From assembly GCF_036365525.1 (NCBI RefSeq), contig NW_027142006.1:10354001-10418000 (forward strand): 64,000 nucleotides of DNA, read 5' to 3'. The first letter of the stretch is position 1, and the number at the start of each line of letters is the position of its first letter. The stretch is from Heterodontus francisci. Lineage: Eukaryota. Made by a program: the position numbers and the translations under genes. Below are positions 11,201-40,380 of the stretch, in pieces. Below the pieces are notes generated by a model. That model ran no database searches, had not been told where the DNA came from, and worked only from the letters and a program-made list of their open reading frames with translations.

Positions 11201-12781
11201 ACAAGGAGGAGGTATTATCAATTTTGGAGAGTCTGAAAATAGATAAGTCCCCTGGGCCAGATGGGATTTATCCGAGGATTCACTGGGAAGCTAGGGAGGA
11301 GATTGCAGAGCCTTTGTCCTTGATCTTTATCGTCATTGTCGACAGGAATAGTGCCGGAAGACTGGAGAATAGCAAATGTTGTCCCCTTGTTCAAGAAGGG
11401 GAGTAGAGACAGCTCTGGTAATTATAGACCTGTGAGCCTTACTTCGGTTGTGGGTAAAATGTTGGAAAAGGTTATAAGAGACAGGATTTATAATCATCTT
11501 GAAAACAATAAGTTCATTAGCGATAGTCAGCACGGTTTTGTGAAGGGTAGGTCGTGCCTCACAAACCTTATTGAGTTTTTCGACAAGGTGACCAAACAGG
11601 TGGATGAGGGTAAAGCAGTGGATGTGGTGTATATGGATTTCAGTAAGGCGTTTGATAAGGTTCCCCAAGGTAGGCTACTGCAGAAAATACGGAAGTATGG
11701 GGTTGAAGGTGATTTAGAGCTTTGGATCAGAAATTGGCCAGCTGAAAGAAGACAGAGGGTGGTGTTTGATGGCAAATGTTCATCCTGGAATTTAGTTACT
11801 AGTGGTGTACCGCAAGGATCTGTTTTGGGGCCACTGCTGTTTGTCATTTTTATAAGTGACCTGGAAGAGGGTGCAGAAGGGTGGGTGAGTAAATTTGTGG
11901 ATAACACGAAGGTCGGTGGAGTTGTGGATAGTGCCGAAGGATGTTGTAGGGTTCAGAGGGACATAGATAGGCTGCAGAGCTGGGCTGAGAGATGGAAAAT
12001 GGAGTTTAATGCAGAAAAGTGTGAGGTGATTCACTTTGGAAGGAGTAACAGGAATGCAGAGTACTGGGCTAATGGGAAGATTCTTGGTAATGTAGATGAA
12101 CAGAGAGATCTTGGTGTCCAGGTGCATAAATCCCTGAACGTTGCTACCCAGGTTAATAGGGCTGTTAAGAAGGCATATGGTGTGTTAGCTTTTATTAGTA
12201 GGGGGATCGAGTTTCGGAGCCACGAGGTCATGCTGCAGCTGTACAAAACTCTGGTGAGACCGCACCTGGAGTATTGCAAGCAGTTTTGGTCACCGCATTA
12301 TAGGAAGGATGTGGAAGCTATGGAATGGGTGCAGAGGAGATTTACTAGGATGTTGCCTGGTATGGAGGGAAGGTCTTACGAGGAAAGGCTGAGGGACTTG
12401 AGGTCGTTTTCGTTGGAGAGAAGGAGGAGGAGAGGTGACTTAATAGAGACATATAAGATAATCAGAGGGTTGGATAGGGTGGATAGTGAGAGTTTTTTTC
12501 CTCGGATGGTGATGGCAAACACGAGATGACATAGCTTTAAGTTGAGGAGTGATAGATATAGGACAGATGTCAGAGGTAGTTTCTTTACTCAGAGTAGTAG
12601 GGGCGTGGAATGCCCTGCCAGCAACAGTAGTGGACTCGCCAACTTTAAGGGCATTTAAGTGGTCATTGGATAGACATATGGATGAAAATGGAATAGTGTA
12701 GGTCAGATGGTTTCACAGGTCAGCGCAACATCGAGGGCCGAAGGGCCTGTACTGCGCTGTAATGTTCTAATTCTAATTCTA
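8215..12781 (+). mobile_element. Full-length but frameshifted CR1 LINE (tandem-repeat 5' UTR, ORF1 zinc finger + SGNH esterase, ORF2 APE-RT)
   Basis: ORF1 CSSCGMW..CGKC, VIGDSIVRG, HIGTNDIG; ORF2 YFNARSI, ISETW, MGDFNFP, PQGSVLGP; (AATTCT)n tail; TSD AGAATG at 8209-8214/12782-12787; empty site in the other arm ~56640. Confidence 0.93.
8220..8695 (+). repeat. 171-bp tandem repeat (~2.8 units) in the CR1 5' UTR
   Basis: Units start TGACAGT at 8220, 8391 and 8562 and are near-identical. Confidence 0.9.
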
Positions 12782-13869
12782 AGAATGAATCCCACAATCT
12801 CATTCAGTGCCAGATACTGACAGGTACAGAATTAATCCCACCCGTACACACTGTACTAGGCACTGAAAGACATAGGAAGCATTGCACATTCACATACAAG
12901 AGCAAACATTGACAGATATTGTAGGAGTCACATGCTCACAGTCAGTACCAGATACTGTTGAAAAGAGAATTAATCCCACACTTGCATTCATTGCAAGAGA
13001 CTGACAGTTACATAAAGGTTTTCCCACACTCACATAGAGTAACAGAGACTGACATGCAGAACTTGATCCACACCCATATATAGTACCAAAACCTGAAAGA
13101 TATTGAGTCAATACCACAATCAGATACAGTGTCAAAGACTGACAGCCATATTATAGAGTTCACTTCCATAGAATGCCAGTTATTTACATGTGCAGAATGC
13201 ATCTTGTTTCACATTCAGTCTGGATACTGACAGATACACAATGAATCACTACAATCATACTCAATACCAAGTTCAGACAAACACCATATATATCCCCCAA
13301 TTATTCACAGTATCATAGACTGACAGACACAGAGTGAATCACAAAATCAATTAATTTCAGAGACCAGCAGATAGAGAATTAATCTCACTGTCACGGAAAG
13401 AACCAGAGAGTGACAGATATACAATGAGACCCAAGCTCACATAAAGTGACACACATAATTAAAACCACGTACATACATAGTACCTTAGATTGACACATTG
13501 AGAATGAATCAAACACATTCTGACAATAAGATTGATGCATACACAATGAAGCTCACACTCACATTTAGTTCCAGACATTGACAGATACAGAATGATATCC
13601 ACATTCAGCCACAGTAGCAGATAGATACAGAAGCTGCCCCACATTCCCATACAACACTCATGAATGACATACAGAATGAATCAAACAATCACATTTAGTT
13701 CCATAGACTGACACTCAAATAATCTCACACTCAGACACAGTACCACAGAGATATATTTAGAATTAAATTCACTGTCATATAATGTACCAGAAAGTGTGGC
13801 AAAATTAATCTCATACAGTACAAAGGATGGATGGAATTTGTCCCACACTCAATGTAATAGGTTTTAAGT

Positions 13870-23783: not shown

Positions 23784-24438
23784 ACCCACCACCTCACAGA
23801 GAAAGCAGTGACCTGGAAATGGGAGCTGGGATAGGCTGTTCAGAACAGTTCAATCAATCTGCTGTGTTCGGGATACAAAACTGGAATCCCCGAGTTTGAT
23901 ATTTCATTTGTAGCAAGGATGTGCAGTGGATTTGATTTTGTAAACGTGCTGTGTAAACAGTGCCCGAGACTCTCCAGTTAGTTATTTCCCCAGTCGACAC
24001 ATGCCCTCAGTGAAAAGCCACATCACTCCTCCAGAATCACTCATTGTTTTCATAGAATTTCAAAATGATTTCGATGCAATGAGAGAATCCGGGAGTTTTG
24101 CAGCAGCCGTTGAATCGGTCACTGGAACCAGACCCACTTGTGATGTTATTTCTCCCGAGACGGTGTTTCCTGCACTGAAACTGAGAGGGTTTGTGAAACT
24201 GATCAGTTTCAGCTCAATCATTCAGGGACCTGGAATTCCCGCAGTTTGAGCCCGAGCCCACTTCTGATTGGTCACCCTCTTCCCATTCGTATGTCTTAAC
24301 CAATCGCAGAGCTTCGAATTGGAAAATGCAGCAAATCATTGGCTCAAATTGTCGACCTGACAAAGTTTGAATTCGAAAAAGCCGCCAATTTCAGTATCGG
24401 AAAGAAGCGATTACTGGAAAATCTATCCAAAGCTGATC

Positions 24439-33632: not shown

Positions 33633-34070
33633 TTCCACACGGAGTTTGAGTTACTTGTCCCATTATAGATTGCTGAACAGAGTTGTTTACCGCCAGTTCG
33701 AACAGTTGACAACAATTGACAAATTAAATCTGCTTGTGAAATAGCGCCCGGAATTTGTGACAGTAAAAGTGGAATATGGAAACAGGTTTTTAACTTGTTA
33801 CTGGACTTTTTTTTATTACTTCCAAAATATGCATTATTCATAAAAATCTGTAAAAAGTACATGACTAAACAGTTCTAAACAGCACCAAGTCGAAAATTAC
33901 AAACAGTGCAAAGGAGGTCAGTTTCCTTCATTGCAGGAGTGAGCTGCCTCACAACCCTTCCATTTCATTTTCCATGCCATATACATTTTACAGCAAACGA
34001 AAATTTTCCTGATACATTTCGAGGGGTTTTCCATCGACCCAGCCCATCCGTTCAACTTGGTGGGGGGACC

Positions 34071-37000
34071 TTACACAGTGGTCTTTTCCCATTGAACATT
34101 TGCTGCGGCTGCCCCAAGCTTTAGTGCGTCCCTCAGCACATAGTCCTGGACCTTGGAATGTGCCAGTCTGCAACATTCGGTCGTGGACAACTCTTTGTGC
34201 TGGAAGACCAGCAAGTTTCGGGCAGAACAAAGGGTGTCTTTCACCGAATTGATAGTCCTCCAACAGCAGTTGATGTTTATCTCAGTGTGCGTCCCTGGGA
34301 ACAGCCCGTAGAGCACAGACTCCTGTGTTACAGAGCTGCTTGAGATGAAGTTCGACAAAAACCACTGCATCTCTTTCCACACCTGCTTTGCAAAGACAAA
34401 TTCCAGAAGGAGGTGGGCAACCATCTCTTCCCCACCACAGTCACCTCGAGGGTGTTGTGCAGAGGGGGTGAGACTTCGGGTGTGCAGGAAGGATCTGACT
34501 GGGAGGGCTCTTCTCACCACCAGCCAAGCTTCATCTTGGTGCTTGTTTGAAGGTTCTGGTGATGAGGCATTCCGCCAAATGACTTCGGTGGTCTGCTTGG
34601 GGAAGAGGATCCGCCATCTCCTTTTCCTGTTGGGCCTTGAGGACATTCTGTGCAGACCATTGGCTGATGGACCGGTGGTCAAAGGTGTTTTTCCGCAGAA
34701 ACCGCTCGACGAAGGATAGGTGGAACGACACAGTCCAACTGGATGGAGCATTCCGCGGCAATGTGACAAGGCTTCGCAACACCGGGGACAGATAGAACCT
34801 CAGCACGTGGTGACACTTGGAGTTTGCGTCTACACACAGCTTGATGCAGCCACACACGAAGGTAGTCATCAGGATGAGGGTGATGTTGGGTACATTTTTC
34901 CCACCCTTATCCAGAGGTTTGAGCATCGTGTCCCTCCGGACCCGGTCCATTTTGGATCCCCAGATGAAGCGGAAAATGGCTCGGGTGACCGCCACAGCGC
35001 CGGAGTGGGGTATGGGCCAGACCTGCGCCATGAACAGCAACAACGTGAGCGCCTTGCACCTGATGACCAGGTTCTTACCCACATTGGAGAGAGATCGCTT
35101 CTCCCACATGCTCAGCTTGTGTTGTACCTTGGCTGCTCGCTCTTCCCAGATTTTGGTGCACACCCCGGCCCTTCTGAACCATATTCCCAGCACCTTCAGG
35201 TAGTCTGAGCTGACGGTGAAGGGGACAAAGGATCGGTAAGCCCTGTTCCCAAAGAACATGGCCTCTCTCTTGCCGTGGTTAACTTTGGCTCCCGAGGTCA
35301 GTTTCAACTGGTCGCAGATGCTCATCAGTCTGCACACAGACATCGGGTCCGAGCAGAAGACCGCGACGTCATCCATGTAGAGGGAGGTTTTAACCTGAGT
35401 GCCTCCTCTGCCTGGAATTGTCACCCCTCTTCTGCTCACATTCTTCCTAATAGACTCAGCAAATGGTTCAATACAGCAAACAAACAAGACAGGGGAGAGA
35501 GGATAGCCCTGTCTGACTCCAGATTGGATCGGGAAACTTTCCGATTCCCACCCATTGATTGAGACTGCGCCACTGATGTTTGTGTAGGGCAGTTTGATCC
35601 AATTGCAGATTCCCACGTCCATCATGTATGTGTGTGATATTCTGTCAAAAACCTTCTCCTGGTCCAGGCTGATGAGGCAGGTGTCCACCCTCCTGTCCCG
35701 TACATAGGCGATTGTATCCCTGAGTAGTGCGAGACTATCGGAGATCTTCCTGCCAGGTGCAGTACAGGTCTGATCAGGGTGGATCACCAACTCCAGAGCA
35801 GACTTGACTCGACTGGCTATGACATTGGACAGAATCTTGTCGTCAACATTAAGCAGTGAGATGGGCTGCCAATTTCCAATTTCTGCCCTCTCCCCGTTCC
35901 GCTTGTCAATGAGGGTGATGATGCCTTTCCTCATGGATTCTGATATGCTGCCGGCCAGGAGCATACTCTCGTATACTTCCAGCTGGTCCAGGCAAACCCA
36001 GTCCCACAGGACACAATACAGCTCAACCGGTAAGCCATCGCTTCCGGGAGTTTTATTCGTCTCGAAGGACTTGACGGCCTTTGTTAGCTCATCCCGAGTT
36101 AGCGGCTTGTACAGTCTCTCCCTCCTGCTGTCATCTAAGACCTCTGTGATAGATGACAGGAAGGACTGGGAGGCTCTTCTGTCTGTGGGCTTCGCGTCAT
36201 ACAGCCCAGCATAAAAGGATTTGCTGATCCTTAGTATGTCGGACTGCGAAGATGTTACCGAGCCATCTTCTTCCTTCTGGCTGCTGATAACAGAGCTCTC
36301 TCTGTGTACCTTTTGGAAGAAGTAATGCAGGCACATCTCATCCTGCTCAATGGGGTGGACTCTGGACGGAAGATTATATTGGAGGTCTCCGTGGCAAAGA
36401 GCGAGGCCTGCTTTCTCTTCACCTCTTGGAGGTCCTCCTTGACCTCAACCCCCATCGACTGTAGCCGGAGCAGATTTTGCATACTTTTCTGGAGTCAGGA
36501 CATTTCCCTCTGTCTCTCTCTCGCCCTCTGAACACCTTTTGAGGAGAAAGAACCTCTTGATGTTCTCCTTGATCGCGTCCCACCTGGGAACTGGAGACTC
36601 AGGAGGGGTTTCACGGTTCTCCAACCTTTGTAATCCCTTTTAAGTTCCTCAACGTTCTCTGGGTTTAGCAGTGTAGCATTGAGCTTCCACGTCCCTCTGC
36701 CAACCCGCCAGTCGTCCTATAAGTGACAGTCGGCCATTACGAGGCAGTGGTTCGACAAGAACACCGGCTTGACGTCAATGGATCTGACCGTGACGGCATG
36801 GGCCACAAACAGGAAGTCAATCCTGGAATGGGCAGACCCGTCCAATCTTGACCATGTCTGTCTACGCTGCACTCCGTCTGCAGGTTTGCTGAAAACGTCG
36901 TGCAGTTTTGCATCTTTTACTGTTTCTATTAGGAATCTGGACATAGCGTCCAGTTTGCTGTCGTCTCTGCCAGATCGCCCAGCTGCATCGATGATGCAGT

Positions 37001-38428
37001 TGAAGTCACCGCCTAGGATGACTGGCCTGCACGTTGCCAGCAGCAATGGTTGATGGCAAATGTTCATCCTGGAGTTGAGTTACTAGTGGTGTACCGCAAG
37101 GTTCTGTTTTGGGGCCACTGCTGTTTGTCATTTTTATAAATGACCTGGATGAGGGTGTAGAAGGGTGGGTTAGTACATTTGCGGATGACACGAAGGTCGG
37201 TGGAGTTGTGGATAGTGTCGAAGGGTGTTGTAGGGTACAGAGGGACATAGATAGGCTGCAGAGCTGGGCTGAGAGATGGCAAATGGAGTTTAATGCGGAG
37301 AAGTGTGAGGTGATTCACTTTGGAAGAAGTAACAGCAATGCAGAGTACTGGGCTAATGGGAAGATTCTTGGTAGTGTAGATGTACAGAGAGATCTTGGTG
37401 TCCAGATACATAAATCCCTGAAGGTTGCTATCCATGTTAATAGGGCTGTTAAGAAGGCATTTGGTGTGTTCGCTTTTATTAGTAGGGGGATCGAGTTTCG
37501 GAGCCACGAGGTCATGATGCAGCTGTACAAAATTCTGGTGAGGCCGCACCTTGAGTATTGCGTGCAATTCTGGTCACCGCATTATCGGAAGGATGTGGAA
37601 GCTTTGGAAAGGGTGCAGAGGAGATTTACTAGGATGTTGCCTGGTATGGAAGGAAGGTCTTACGAGGAAAGGCTGAGGGACTTGGGGTTGTTTTCGTTAG
37701 AGAGAAGGAGGAGGAGAGGTGACTTAATAGAGACATCCAAGATAATCAGAGGGTTAGATAGGGTGGATATTGAAAGTCTTTTTCCTCGGATGATGATGGC
37801 AAACACGAGGGGACATAGCTTTAAGTTGAGGGGTGAAAGATATAGGACAGATGTCAGAGGTAGTTTCTTTACGCAGAGAGTAGAAGGGGCGTGGAACGCC
37901 CTGTCTGCAACAGTAGTAGACTCGCCAACTTTAAGGGCATTTAAGTGGTCATTGGATAGACATATGGATGAAAATGGAATAGTGTAGGTCAGATGGTCGG
38001 CGCAACATCGAGGGCCGAAGGGCCTGTACTGCGCTGTAATGTTCTAGTTCTAATTCTAATTCTAATTCTAAAGACGGTCAACCGTTCGCTGCATTGAAAC
38101 GGGGCGTACATGCTGATCAACCAGAGCGAAGCATTGTTGTACATTACATCTGCGATGAGGAGGCGACTGCCCACCACCTCCTTAACTTCGGAGATGGTGA
38201 AGTCACCTCCCCGCAGCAGAAGACCCAGGCCGGAGGAATGGCAATCATTACCCCCTGACCAGATCGATGGCCCGTGGGACCACCATTGCGACCACTGCCT
38301 GTCGGTGCTGAGATGTGGTATTCCACACTCCTGCAGAAACAGGGGGTCGGCTTTGACCTTGGCGAGGTAATCCATCGCATAGTGGATTTAATGCTACGCA
38401 CATTAATTGAAGCAATCGTTATACCCAT
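34071..38428 (-). pseudogene. Tx1 ORF2 (APE endonuclease + RT + C-terminal zinc finger), disrupted
   Basis: MGITIASINVRS, FLQEC, ILGGDFNC, SRIDF, SNHC; KTPGSDG, SLYMDDV; HLLLE; frameshifts and a nested CR1. Confidence 0.9.
37046..38070 (+). mobile_element. CR1 3' fragment nested in the Tx1 endonuclease domain
   Basis: FADDTKVGG, RPHLEYCVQFWSP; (AATTCT)n tail; same family as 8215-12781. Confidence 0.92.
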
Positions 38429-38438
38429 TTTTTTAAAG

Positions 38439-39981
38439 TTAGTTGTTGCTTCCCATACCATTTGTCCTTCCTAGTCCCAGTCCTTCAGGATGTTCCTGTA
38501 TACCCATAGTGTACGCAAGCTGTTTCACACTCGTTGGGCTCAGAAACCCCTCCTGGTTTTTCATGCAGGGTTTCTTCCACTGAGGTGACATCGGTGGGGG
38601 GGCGGGGGTCTTGTTGGCAGCAGGGATTGGGCTGTTCTCTGCTGTTCCCCTCTGTTCCTCCTCGAAAGCATCACTGCTGCCGGCTTTCCAGAGCTGAAGT
38701 GCGCCAGATGTGTCTTTGCTCTCAGTGTCCCAGAGCTGGGATGTGTTGGCCATGTCGCTAGGTGTGGCGCTTTGGGTTTGGGGCTTGACAGGCCCATCAC
38801 AGCTTCCAGTGCCCGGGGGCTGGGGGGCTTTATCTTCCAGCTCCTTTTGAGTTCTGCCGCTTCTTTTGAAGGTGCTGTCGCTCCGGCACTTCCTCATTCA
38901 GTGAAGAGGAGCTGCTGTAGTCTGTCTCAGACGGTAGCCTCCTCTTGCCACTGGTTTGGGTGGTGGCCTGTTCCGCTTTTGGAGGTCTTTTCTTTGTGGT
39001 TTTCCTTTGGACAAACTGCCACTGACCTGTTTGTCCATCTGCTGCCTCCTCCTCCATTGATTCTGTCTGTGGAGGAGGGGTTTCCGGGTGCAGGGTAGGT
39101 GCCGGGTTGCTGGTTTCAGTTGCCTTCCCTTTCTTCTCCTTCTCAGGTAGAAGTTCCTCACTGCAGAGAAGGTTGCTTGTCTCCTTTCCAACACCGGACG
39201 CCTTCGTCGAACCTTCTCCCGGCCTTTCCTTGGACCTTGCCGCCTGAGCATAACTGAGGCAGCGTTTGGGGCAGGTTTTGTAGAGATGGCCTGCCGCACC
39301 ACACAGGTTGCAACACTTACTCTGCTTACAGTCCTTGGTCTGATGGCCTTCCTTCTTGCAGTTCTTGCAGACAACCGTGCTGCAGTTAGCTGCCACGTGA
39401 CCAGATTTGCCACAGGTGCTACAAACTTTGGGCTGCCCAGCGTAGACCAAGAAGCCTCGACTTCCCCTGATAGCGAAGCTGGAGGGAGGGTGGATGATGG
39501 CTCCATTGGCATCGACCGTCAAGGTCACCTTGACTTGCCGCTTATTGGTCCAAATCCCAAAGGGGTCTTTGACATCAGTGCTGGCCACCTCGACGTACCT
39601 GGCGAGAAAGGTGAGTACATCCACCACAGGAACATGGGGGTTGGAGAGGTGAATTGTCACCACCCGGTCATGTTGTGACGGAAGCGTGAAGAGCGGCTCC
39701 ACTGGGAGGATCGACAGCGGCGCCCGGTCCCCTTTCTCCTTGAACGCCTTCAGGAACTTGATGCACCCCGCCACATTCTTGAATGTCATGTCGATATACC
39801 CACTGCTGGGGAAATCCTGCAGGCAGAAGATGTGCCTAGCTTGAAATCCACAGCAATCGATGAGGATTTTCTTGATGAAGAAGGTGCGATCGACCAGTGC
39901 ATCTCCTTCCTTGTCCTTCACCACCACCCGAATGGTGTTCCGCACTCCCTGGCCTGAAGCTCAAAGATTAGTTATAGCCAT
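38439..39981 (-). pseudogene. Tx1 ORF1 (gag-like, three CCHC zinc knuckles, ZCCHC3-like)
   Basis: ATG at 39981 with a TGA at codon 7; CSTCGKSGHVAANC, CKNCKKEGHQTKDC, CNLCGAAGHLYKTC; frameshift near 38850. Confidence 0.85.
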
Positions 39982-40014
39982 TTTACTCAAAGCCTACCCA
40001 GGATCAAAAGCCAC

Positions 40015-40045
40015 TGATCATGGTTTCTCCTCTGCCAAGTAAGTA
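40015..40045 (-). ncRNA. RNU1: U1 snRNA 5' fragment (nt ~2-32) within the Tx1 5' UTR; not a complete gene
   Basis: TACTTACtTGGCAGaGGAGAaACCATGATCA vs U1 TACTTACCTGGCAGGGGAGATACCATGATCA: 28/31. Confidence 0.85.
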
Positions 40046-40094
40046 CTGATAAGAACAGATACTACACTTGATCTTAGCCAAAAGGCTGAGAAGC
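40045..40094 (-). ncRNA. RNU2: U2 snRNA 5' fragment (nt ~4-53) within the Tx1 5' UTR; not a complete gene
   Basis: GCTTCTCaGCCTTTTGGCTAAGATCAAGTGTAGTATCTGTTCTTATCAGT: 49/50 to vertebrate U2 as recalled. Confidence 0.92.
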
Positions 40095-40380
40095 TCCACC
40101 ACTGGCGGTCCTGCCTTCAGTTGCCTGGACCCCAAGCTACTGGACATAGATTTTCCAGGAATTCGCTTCTTTACTGCACTGAAATTGGAGGCTTTTTCGA
40201 TTTAAAATATTCTGTCAGGTCGACAATTTAAGCCAATGCTTGGCTGCATTTTCTAATTCAAGGCTCTGTGATTGGTTAAGACGTGTGAATAAGAAGAGGG
40301 TGACCAATCAGAAGTGGGTTCGGGTAAGCATGGGCTCAAACTGTGTGAATTCCAGGTCCCTGAATGACTGAGCTGAAACT

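Follow-up and report, generated by a model that had tools for sequence, protein, structure and literature searches.

On its minus strand, the window (the whole 64,000-nt stretch of Heterodontus francisci DNA analysed here; NW_027142006.1, positions 10,354,001 to 10,418,000) carries a dead copy of a Tx1-type LINE that begins with pieces of two snRNAs. Read 5' to 3' on that strand, one copy of a putative 8-bp target-site duplication, GTCCAGTA (40138..40145), is followed by a copy-specific 43-nt leader (40095..40137), by nt 4-53 of U2 snRNA (40045..40094; 49/50 identical to the genome's own U2) and by nt 2-32 of U1 snRNA (40015..40045; 28/31 identical to the genome's own U1), an older head that is now internal and diverging. 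The two snRNA pieces are joined without a spacer and overlap by one T (40045). The remaining 33 nt of the 5' UTR (39982..40014), for which folding predictions give a fold-back onto the U1 piece in old U1-first copies, lead to the ATG of ORF1 at 39981. Behind them lie the remnants of ORF1 (38439..39981) and ORF2 (34071..38428), a 3' UTR with a poly(A) signal and a short A tail (33807..34070), and the second copy of the putative target-site duplication (33799..33806, a direct repeat of GTCCAGTA at 40145-40138). A preliminary description of this locus had given the composition of the head and its distance from the ORF1 start as we find them. It had also called the element full-length, which holds for the extent of the copy but not for its coding capacity: ORF1 has a stop at codon 7, ORF2 is in pieces, and about 1 kb of foreign LINE lies inside it. 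This insert (37050..38070, plus strand) is the 3' end of another LINE, presumably CR1-like, that arrived later; it is absent from the dispersed copies of the element and is 93% identical to positions 11763-12782 of the window.

The head itself is no functional snRNA, as it holds only U2 4-53 and U1 2-32, neither of them full length and neither extending as far as the Sm site. The Rfam search that the preliminary description had proposed recognized it in part, with U2 as the single match (55.4 bits, E 5e-10) and no match reported for the U1 piece. The leader, formerly taken as part of the 5' end of the element, is peculiar to one insertion. It corresponds, in antisense, to part of the ORF2 C-terminus of a common LINE, presumably L2 (33/41 positions matched in a repeat at locus L059, E 4e-5; the plus strand reads STTGGPAFSCLDPK), and it is found in none of the dispersed copies and present only in segmental copies of the window insertion. 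Because it is missing from the dispersed copies and matches a common repeat in antisense, the leader was likely a single addition at the 5' joint of this insertion. As for the position of the head inside a target-site duplication, the 8-bp direct repeat is present, but a genome search for the empty site gave 0 matches.

The region around the copy is part of a large segment, present in at least 37 copies at 98-99.8% identity (L001-L030), that holds histone genes and dead LINEs. The 37 near-identical best matches were rejected as independent evidence, being segmental copies of one insertion; among the 30 best matches examined, the window included, 27 share 1.5 kb upstream at 97.6-100% identity and 3 share the nearest 441 bp.

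To what extent the head is a trait of the family was judged from searches of the 6.0-Gb genome. A 28-nt pattern spanning the U2/U1 junction is matched exactly at 78 sites, and the reversed control at 0; 26 of the 78 sites lie in the amplified family of the window segment and 52 are dispersed. Together with one further copy, the dispersed matches make 53 copies, all of which continue as the same element (identity mostly 85-93%) and have flanks that differ from copy to copy (by eye); 10 of the 53 follow the 3' end of another element. A search with the ATG region, blind to the U2 piece, gave at least 773 matches, most of them dispersed, and the U2 piece is present in 29 of the 30 examined, the remaining one ending inside the U1 piece. 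The comparison of 5' ends that had been suggested thus shows the U2+U1 head to be a trait of the family, and the refuting condition named in the preliminary description, an absence of the snRNA pieces from other full-length copies, does not hold. The U1 match, the significance of which had been left to be checked, is likewise genuine, as attested by the junction pattern and by older relatives that carry U1 1-32 with 0-1 differences. At one dispersed locus (L070, 5120-6367), a full copy is followed by a short 3' piece that shares its target duplication, so an off-target site was reused.

The preliminary description had also proposed to look for copies inside real snRNA genes, and these exist. 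The U2 genes lie on contig C41, partly as a 577-bp tandem array. We found 125 junctions of the element directly behind the flank of a U2 gene; every one of the 100 that were listed maps to C41, within 6.3-10.5 Mb. There are also 312 element 3' ends, with tails of varying length, that run on into the remainder of U2, and C41 accounts for 94 of the 100 listed. A contiguous 200-kb sample, picked in a dense part of the array, contains 99 U2 units, of which 59 are intact and 40 are interrupted, by 14 copies with full heads, 1 with an internally deleted head and 25 truncated ones (classified by eye). Both ORFs are intact in 11 of the 14 full-headed copies. Such intact relatives encode an ORF1 protein of 508 aa, with two ZCCHC3-type RNA-binding domains and CCHC knuckles, and an ORF2 protein of 1135 aa with AP endonuclease (Pfam PF03372, E 3e-14), RT and zf-RVT domains. 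The mean identity among 15 array copies is 99.2%, and an intact array copy is 87-89% identical to the window copy, in the same family.

In the 200-kb sample, U2 resumes at nt 35 or 38 behind each of the 47 element 3' ends: among those scored automatically, 27/38 join at nt 38 and 11/38 at nt 35, and the 9 others were assigned to 35 or 38 by eye. In a separate set of 3' ends, 15/34 join at nt 38, which is the main joint; nt 33, 35, 48 and 56 are used less frequently. Among the truncated array copies, 13 of 17 distinct 5' joints fall at U2 nt 50-57 (by eye, in the 200 kb). Given the 3' joint at nt 38 and these 5' joints, nt 38 to ~53 is the target duplication and, since the duplication ends at nt ~53, the U2 1-53 in front of an insertion is host DNA. 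The U2 1-53 of the array copies is, then, host 5' flank plus target duplication. Array copies are inserted also into the U2 piece of earlier array copies. One truncated 5' joint recurs 6 times among the 25 truncated copies, and the array copies may multiply in part by duplication of the array. Four copies in the array (L204, L207, L208, L210) consist of the U2 head, 6 nt of the U1 piece and then the 3' 2.1 kb; this internally deleted form is possibly a non-autonomous derivative. Two types of U2 genes occur on C41 (6.8-7.5 Mb and 21.6-22.0 Mb): those of the 577-bp array and those of a U1-U2 unit of 23 kb. The types have different 3' halves and different sequences upstream, and each of the 100 listed full-head insertions carries the flank of the 577-bp type.

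The element shows the hallmarks of the Tx1 clade, namely, CCHC knuckles in ORF1, AP endonuclease and RT in ORF2, a poly(A) tail and target duplications, and its protein matches are annotated 'transposon TX1' at 41-47% identity. In an RT tree, the query clusters (0.99) with proteins from amphibians and with unnamed ones, and the deeper nodes lack resolution; no match is named Keno, although one Takifugu RT (BAD04856.1) may be a Keno. Keno is described as a U2-specific Tx1-clade element with a 3' joint 37 nt into U2 and the flank TCTGTTCTTATCAGTTTAAT (PMC6136364). Like Keno, the present element has an AP endonuclease and RT, and its 3' ends join U2 mainly at the same point, 37 nt in and with the same flank (PMC6136364, PMC4640811). 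In contrast to Keno, it has hundreds of dispersed full-length copies, insertions in U1 genes and at histone starts, additional U2 sites (33, 35, 48, 56) and an internal U1 piece. With most of the at least 773 ATG-region matches dispersed, its U2 specificity is loose; for this reason, and given the poorly resolved deeper nodes of the RT tree, we provisionally file it as Keno-like.

The dispersed copies point to the origin of the element RNA. The set comprised 80 distinct loci, of which 77 passed the head filter, and none of the 77 contains upstream flank of a U2 gene, whereas 58/77 start within U2 nt 1-7, and 27/77 at nt 1-2. Because most of the dispersed copies begin at U2 +1 to +7 and none has upstream flank, it is likely at the U2 promoter that the element RNA starts. 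The upstream region of the 577-bp array resembles the U1 upstream element only faintly, and its presumed activity is deduced from where the dispersed copies begin. One array copy (L199) has U2 1-44 followed by a second head, U2 1-53, and two copies within one U1 gene carry U2 3-53, so the U2 head travels with the element. The majority U2 piece is identical to host U2 in each of three groups, namely, old dispersed copies (n=52), copies picked by their ATG region (n=28) and array copies (n=30), whereas the U1 piece differs from the host at 3, 8 and 8 of 30 sites, respectively. This amounts to 0/53 fixed changes in U2 against 8/30 in U1 (p 1.5e-4 if the 8 changes were spread evenly over the 83 sites). 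Renewal of the U2 piece from the host gene at each on-target insertion would account for its constancy without selection.

The reading that we consider highly probable is that the source copies reside in U2 genes and produce RNA from the U2 promoter, with U1 being an older head that became internal when the element landed in a U2 gene. Under this scenario, intact copies of a Tx1-type LINE, inserted in host U2 genes at the Keno site, would use the U2 promoter, and U2 nt 1-53 would thereby form the start of every element RNA; the U2 piece would be renewed from the host gene at every on-target insertion, and the dispersed copies would mostly be promoterless dead ends. The U1 head would probably have been gained by the same route or by a template switch and would have become internal later, after a U1-headed copy entered a U2 gene. 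The window copy would be a decayed off-target daughter. The preliminary description had suggested that the stacked heads record earlier snRNA-gene targets captured by read-through; for U2, the comparison supports this idea, although the target is a current rather than a past one, and for U1 either route may apply.

The order in which the heads were gained can be traced through copies that start with U1. In 45 copies, U1 1-32 is matched at all or all but one site, followed by the next two bases of the element. We examined 30 such U1-first copies and found none of them inside a U1 gene. Nothing derived from an snRNA precedes the head in 28 of them; the other two are preceded by U2 1-47 and by a U1-like 1-51, respectively. 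A DNA tree of the RT region, rooted at the midpoint and built from the 75 of 87 copies that had enough sequence, places 13 of the 16 U1-first copies outside a clade (0.91) that comprises all 59 U2+U1 copies and the other 3 inside it. The median terminal branches shorten from 0.055 in the U1-first copies (n=16) through 0.033 in the dispersed U2+U1 copies (n=35) to 0.001 in the array copies (n=15); the branch of the window copy is 0.054. Judging by this placement and the shortening of the branches, the U1 head was likely acquired first and the U2 head second. A sister subfamily (L216, L224, L226, L232, L235, L240, L241, L243) has a U1 1-32 head and a T-rich 5' UTR that is ~150 nt longer; in related copies, the extra part shows CAG/GT at one end and pyrimidine-CAG at the other, and it is possibly an intron or the undeleted ancestor.

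The element also inserts in U1 genes. Three young copies lie in two real U1 genes on C41, with joints at nt 38-40. One of these genes (C41, 6.047-6.058 Mb; L279 3065-8470, L280 474-5930) retains its upstream region and harbors two different intact copies in tandem, with the 5' flank U1 1-54 and 3' joints at U1 38 and 40; duplication of a single insertion was rejected given 45 differences between the copies and their different 3' joints. The other gene contains a truncated copy with U1 1-55 in front and a 3' joint at 40. The gene with the tandem copies now reads U1 1-54, U2 3-53 and the old U1 piece, and this U1-U2-U1 arrangement is a third head in the making; an exact-match genome search for daughters with such a head returns only the 2 copies at the locus. 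Older insertions precede U1 nt 40 or 41 at other loci. Element ends that run into U1 from nt 31 have 0 matches in the genome, so the insertion site lies further into U1. A subsequent U1 search gave 182 element ends, with most of the 100 listed belonging to one amplified family, and the 7 loci of this family that we examined (L286-L292) are a decayed U1 gene that had been entered at nt 41 by insertions that are now old. Two further candidates (L284, L285) were rejected as U1-gene insertions, as they show no U1 continuation beyond ~15 nt. In the amplified family (on C28, C35, C39, C50, C334, C712 and others), the decayed U1 gene was entered repeatedly by Tx1, near nt 20-41, with a U1-first element 134 nt further on, and was amplified ~170 times with the surrounding segment.

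Whether the old U1 piece itself derives from such a landing is another matter, since it ends at nt 32 whereas insertions in U1 genes leave nt 1-54 or 55; being shorter, it may as well have been captured by a template switch. The bases that follow U1 32 fit a shortened or decayed U1 38-51 (in an alignment) and a fold-back of the head equally well. Template switching onto snRNAs, the other route raised in the preliminary description, is thus fully available for U1, and it has been argued for the heads of SINEU elements (Kojima 2015, PMC4494074). For U2, we deem it unlikely that the head came from a template switch onto U2 snRNA, once or at each insertion and helped by the shared nt 38-53, in an element driven by its own promoter. 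The leader of the window copy shows that foreign sequence can be joined at the 5' end, and three copies (L176, L235, L263) display a second U2/U1 joint, at U2 1-47 or 49, although this joint fits independent insertion at the same U2 site equally well. The regular joint, at nt 53, coincides with the end of the target duplication as measured on truncated copies. A single founding switch would have left U2 to drift as U1 did, yet the changes number 0 and 8, and a switch at each insertion would have to operate at near-full efficiency (29/30).

It seems to us highly improbable that the U2 piece is kept constant by selection on the head as a functional RNA module, acting in stability, branch-point masking or nuclear routing; renewal from the host genes suffices to explain it. 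The pattern in the U1 piece is suggestive all the same: the 8 fixed changes are all confined to U1 nt 3-18, leaving 19-32 untouched, and their effect is to lengthen the stem predicted between U1 and U2 nt 25-45 (-25.1 kcal/mol, compared to -18.6 for host U1), a gain matched by 3-5% of random placements in a test made post hoc, after the pattern had been seen. The UTRs of two types of old U1-first copies are also predicted to fold on themselves (z -3.65 and -2.2), but the commonest young UTR on its own folds like its shuffles (z -0.4), and the youngest type is less stable than the preceding one (-25.1 versus -26.8). A role through splice-site pairing of the U1 piece is disfavoured because the active subfamily has changed ACTTAC to GCTTAT. 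The stem-lengthening changes are a weak hint at selection on the predicted structure, which can add to U2-promoter read-through with renewal but not replace it.

A broader and more speculative possibility concerns the choice of landing sites. In the window, 4 of 7 Tx1 3' ends (2970, 3266 and 32502 on the plus strand, 62093 on the minus strand) are followed by the first codons of H2A, three of them right at the start codon. The window copy sits at AT^GTC, behind a CCAAT-/TATA-like stretch (40146-40330, minus strand) and ~36 nt past a possible initiator; the stretch has a paralog at 24205-24426 (plus strand) and no histone frame behind it. It is conceivable, although we are inclined to doubt it, that a Keno-like LINE collects promoters serially, cutting ~35-40 nt past the starts of short and highly active Pol II genes, those of U2, U1 and histones, partly by position, with the buried head selected into a branch-point-masking stem. 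If so, each landing in an snRNA gene would provide a new outer head along with a new promoter, an snRNA promoter would make a 5.3-kb polyadenylated and translated RNA, and the U1-U2-U1 copies in the U1 gene would be the next round caught in the act.

Several known systems invite comparison. R2, which uses a restriction-like endonuclease, relies on the transcript of its host gene, as the present element is proposed to do; in contrast, the present element has an AP endonuclease and would keep the host 5' piece on its RNA. The co-transcription of R2 with 28S rRNA is cited in PMC4494074. In the same source, the crocodilian Tx1-Mar group, which clusters with Keno and targets Mariner-N4_AMi, is described as including elements with U1 heads (Tx1-2_Crp, Tx1-2B_Crp, Tx1-4_AMi) and one with a U2 head (Tx1-11_Crp), and these heads are ascribed to template switching (Kojima 2015, PMC4494074). 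Tx1-Mar and SINEU-1C/H share with our element the snRNA 5' heads, the order of U2 ahead of U1 (in SINEU-1C/H) and tandem insertion (PMC4494074). Unlike Tx1-Mar, however, the present element has source copies inside U2 genes and a stacked head on an autonomous, intact element and, unlike SINEU, which is short, non-autonomous and devoid of ORFs, it is 5.3 kb long with two ORFs. Utopia occupies the same U2 site, with 20-bp duplications in reptiles, but has a restriction-like endonuclease rather than an AP endonuclease (PMC4640811). Dada-U1 also inserts in U1 genes but is a DNA transposon with another site and an unrelated enzyme (PMC3706591).

The U2 site of Keno and Tx1 elements with a U1 or U2 head are already in print (PMC4494074). 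Our searches of an open-access collection without Kojima and Fujiwara 2004 and Repbase Reports turned up neither an account of Tx1 elements in U1 genes nor one of U2-promoter read-through for such elements. How snRNA-headed retroelements are transcribed has been an open question, U1 and U2 having no internal promoter (Kojima 2015, PMC4494074); for Tx1-Mar and SINEU, the promoter was left open in this source, and co-transcription with the target was raised as a possibility. The window copy itself is a dead by-product, but the genome that contains it shows the whole series: intact copies in U2 genes, off-target daughters that begin at U2 +1, U1-first copies and fresh insertions in U1 genes. This series makes the transcription of snRNA-headed retroelements directly testable and offers a simple origin for the heads of SINEU and Tx1-Mar, namely, host 5' flank plus target duplication. 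The system also supplies an intact LINE of the AP-endonuclease type whose multicopy target is defined. Normally, snRNA promoters are coupled to Integrator 3' processing; the implication of the read-through proposed here is that an snRNA promoter can yield a long coding RNA.
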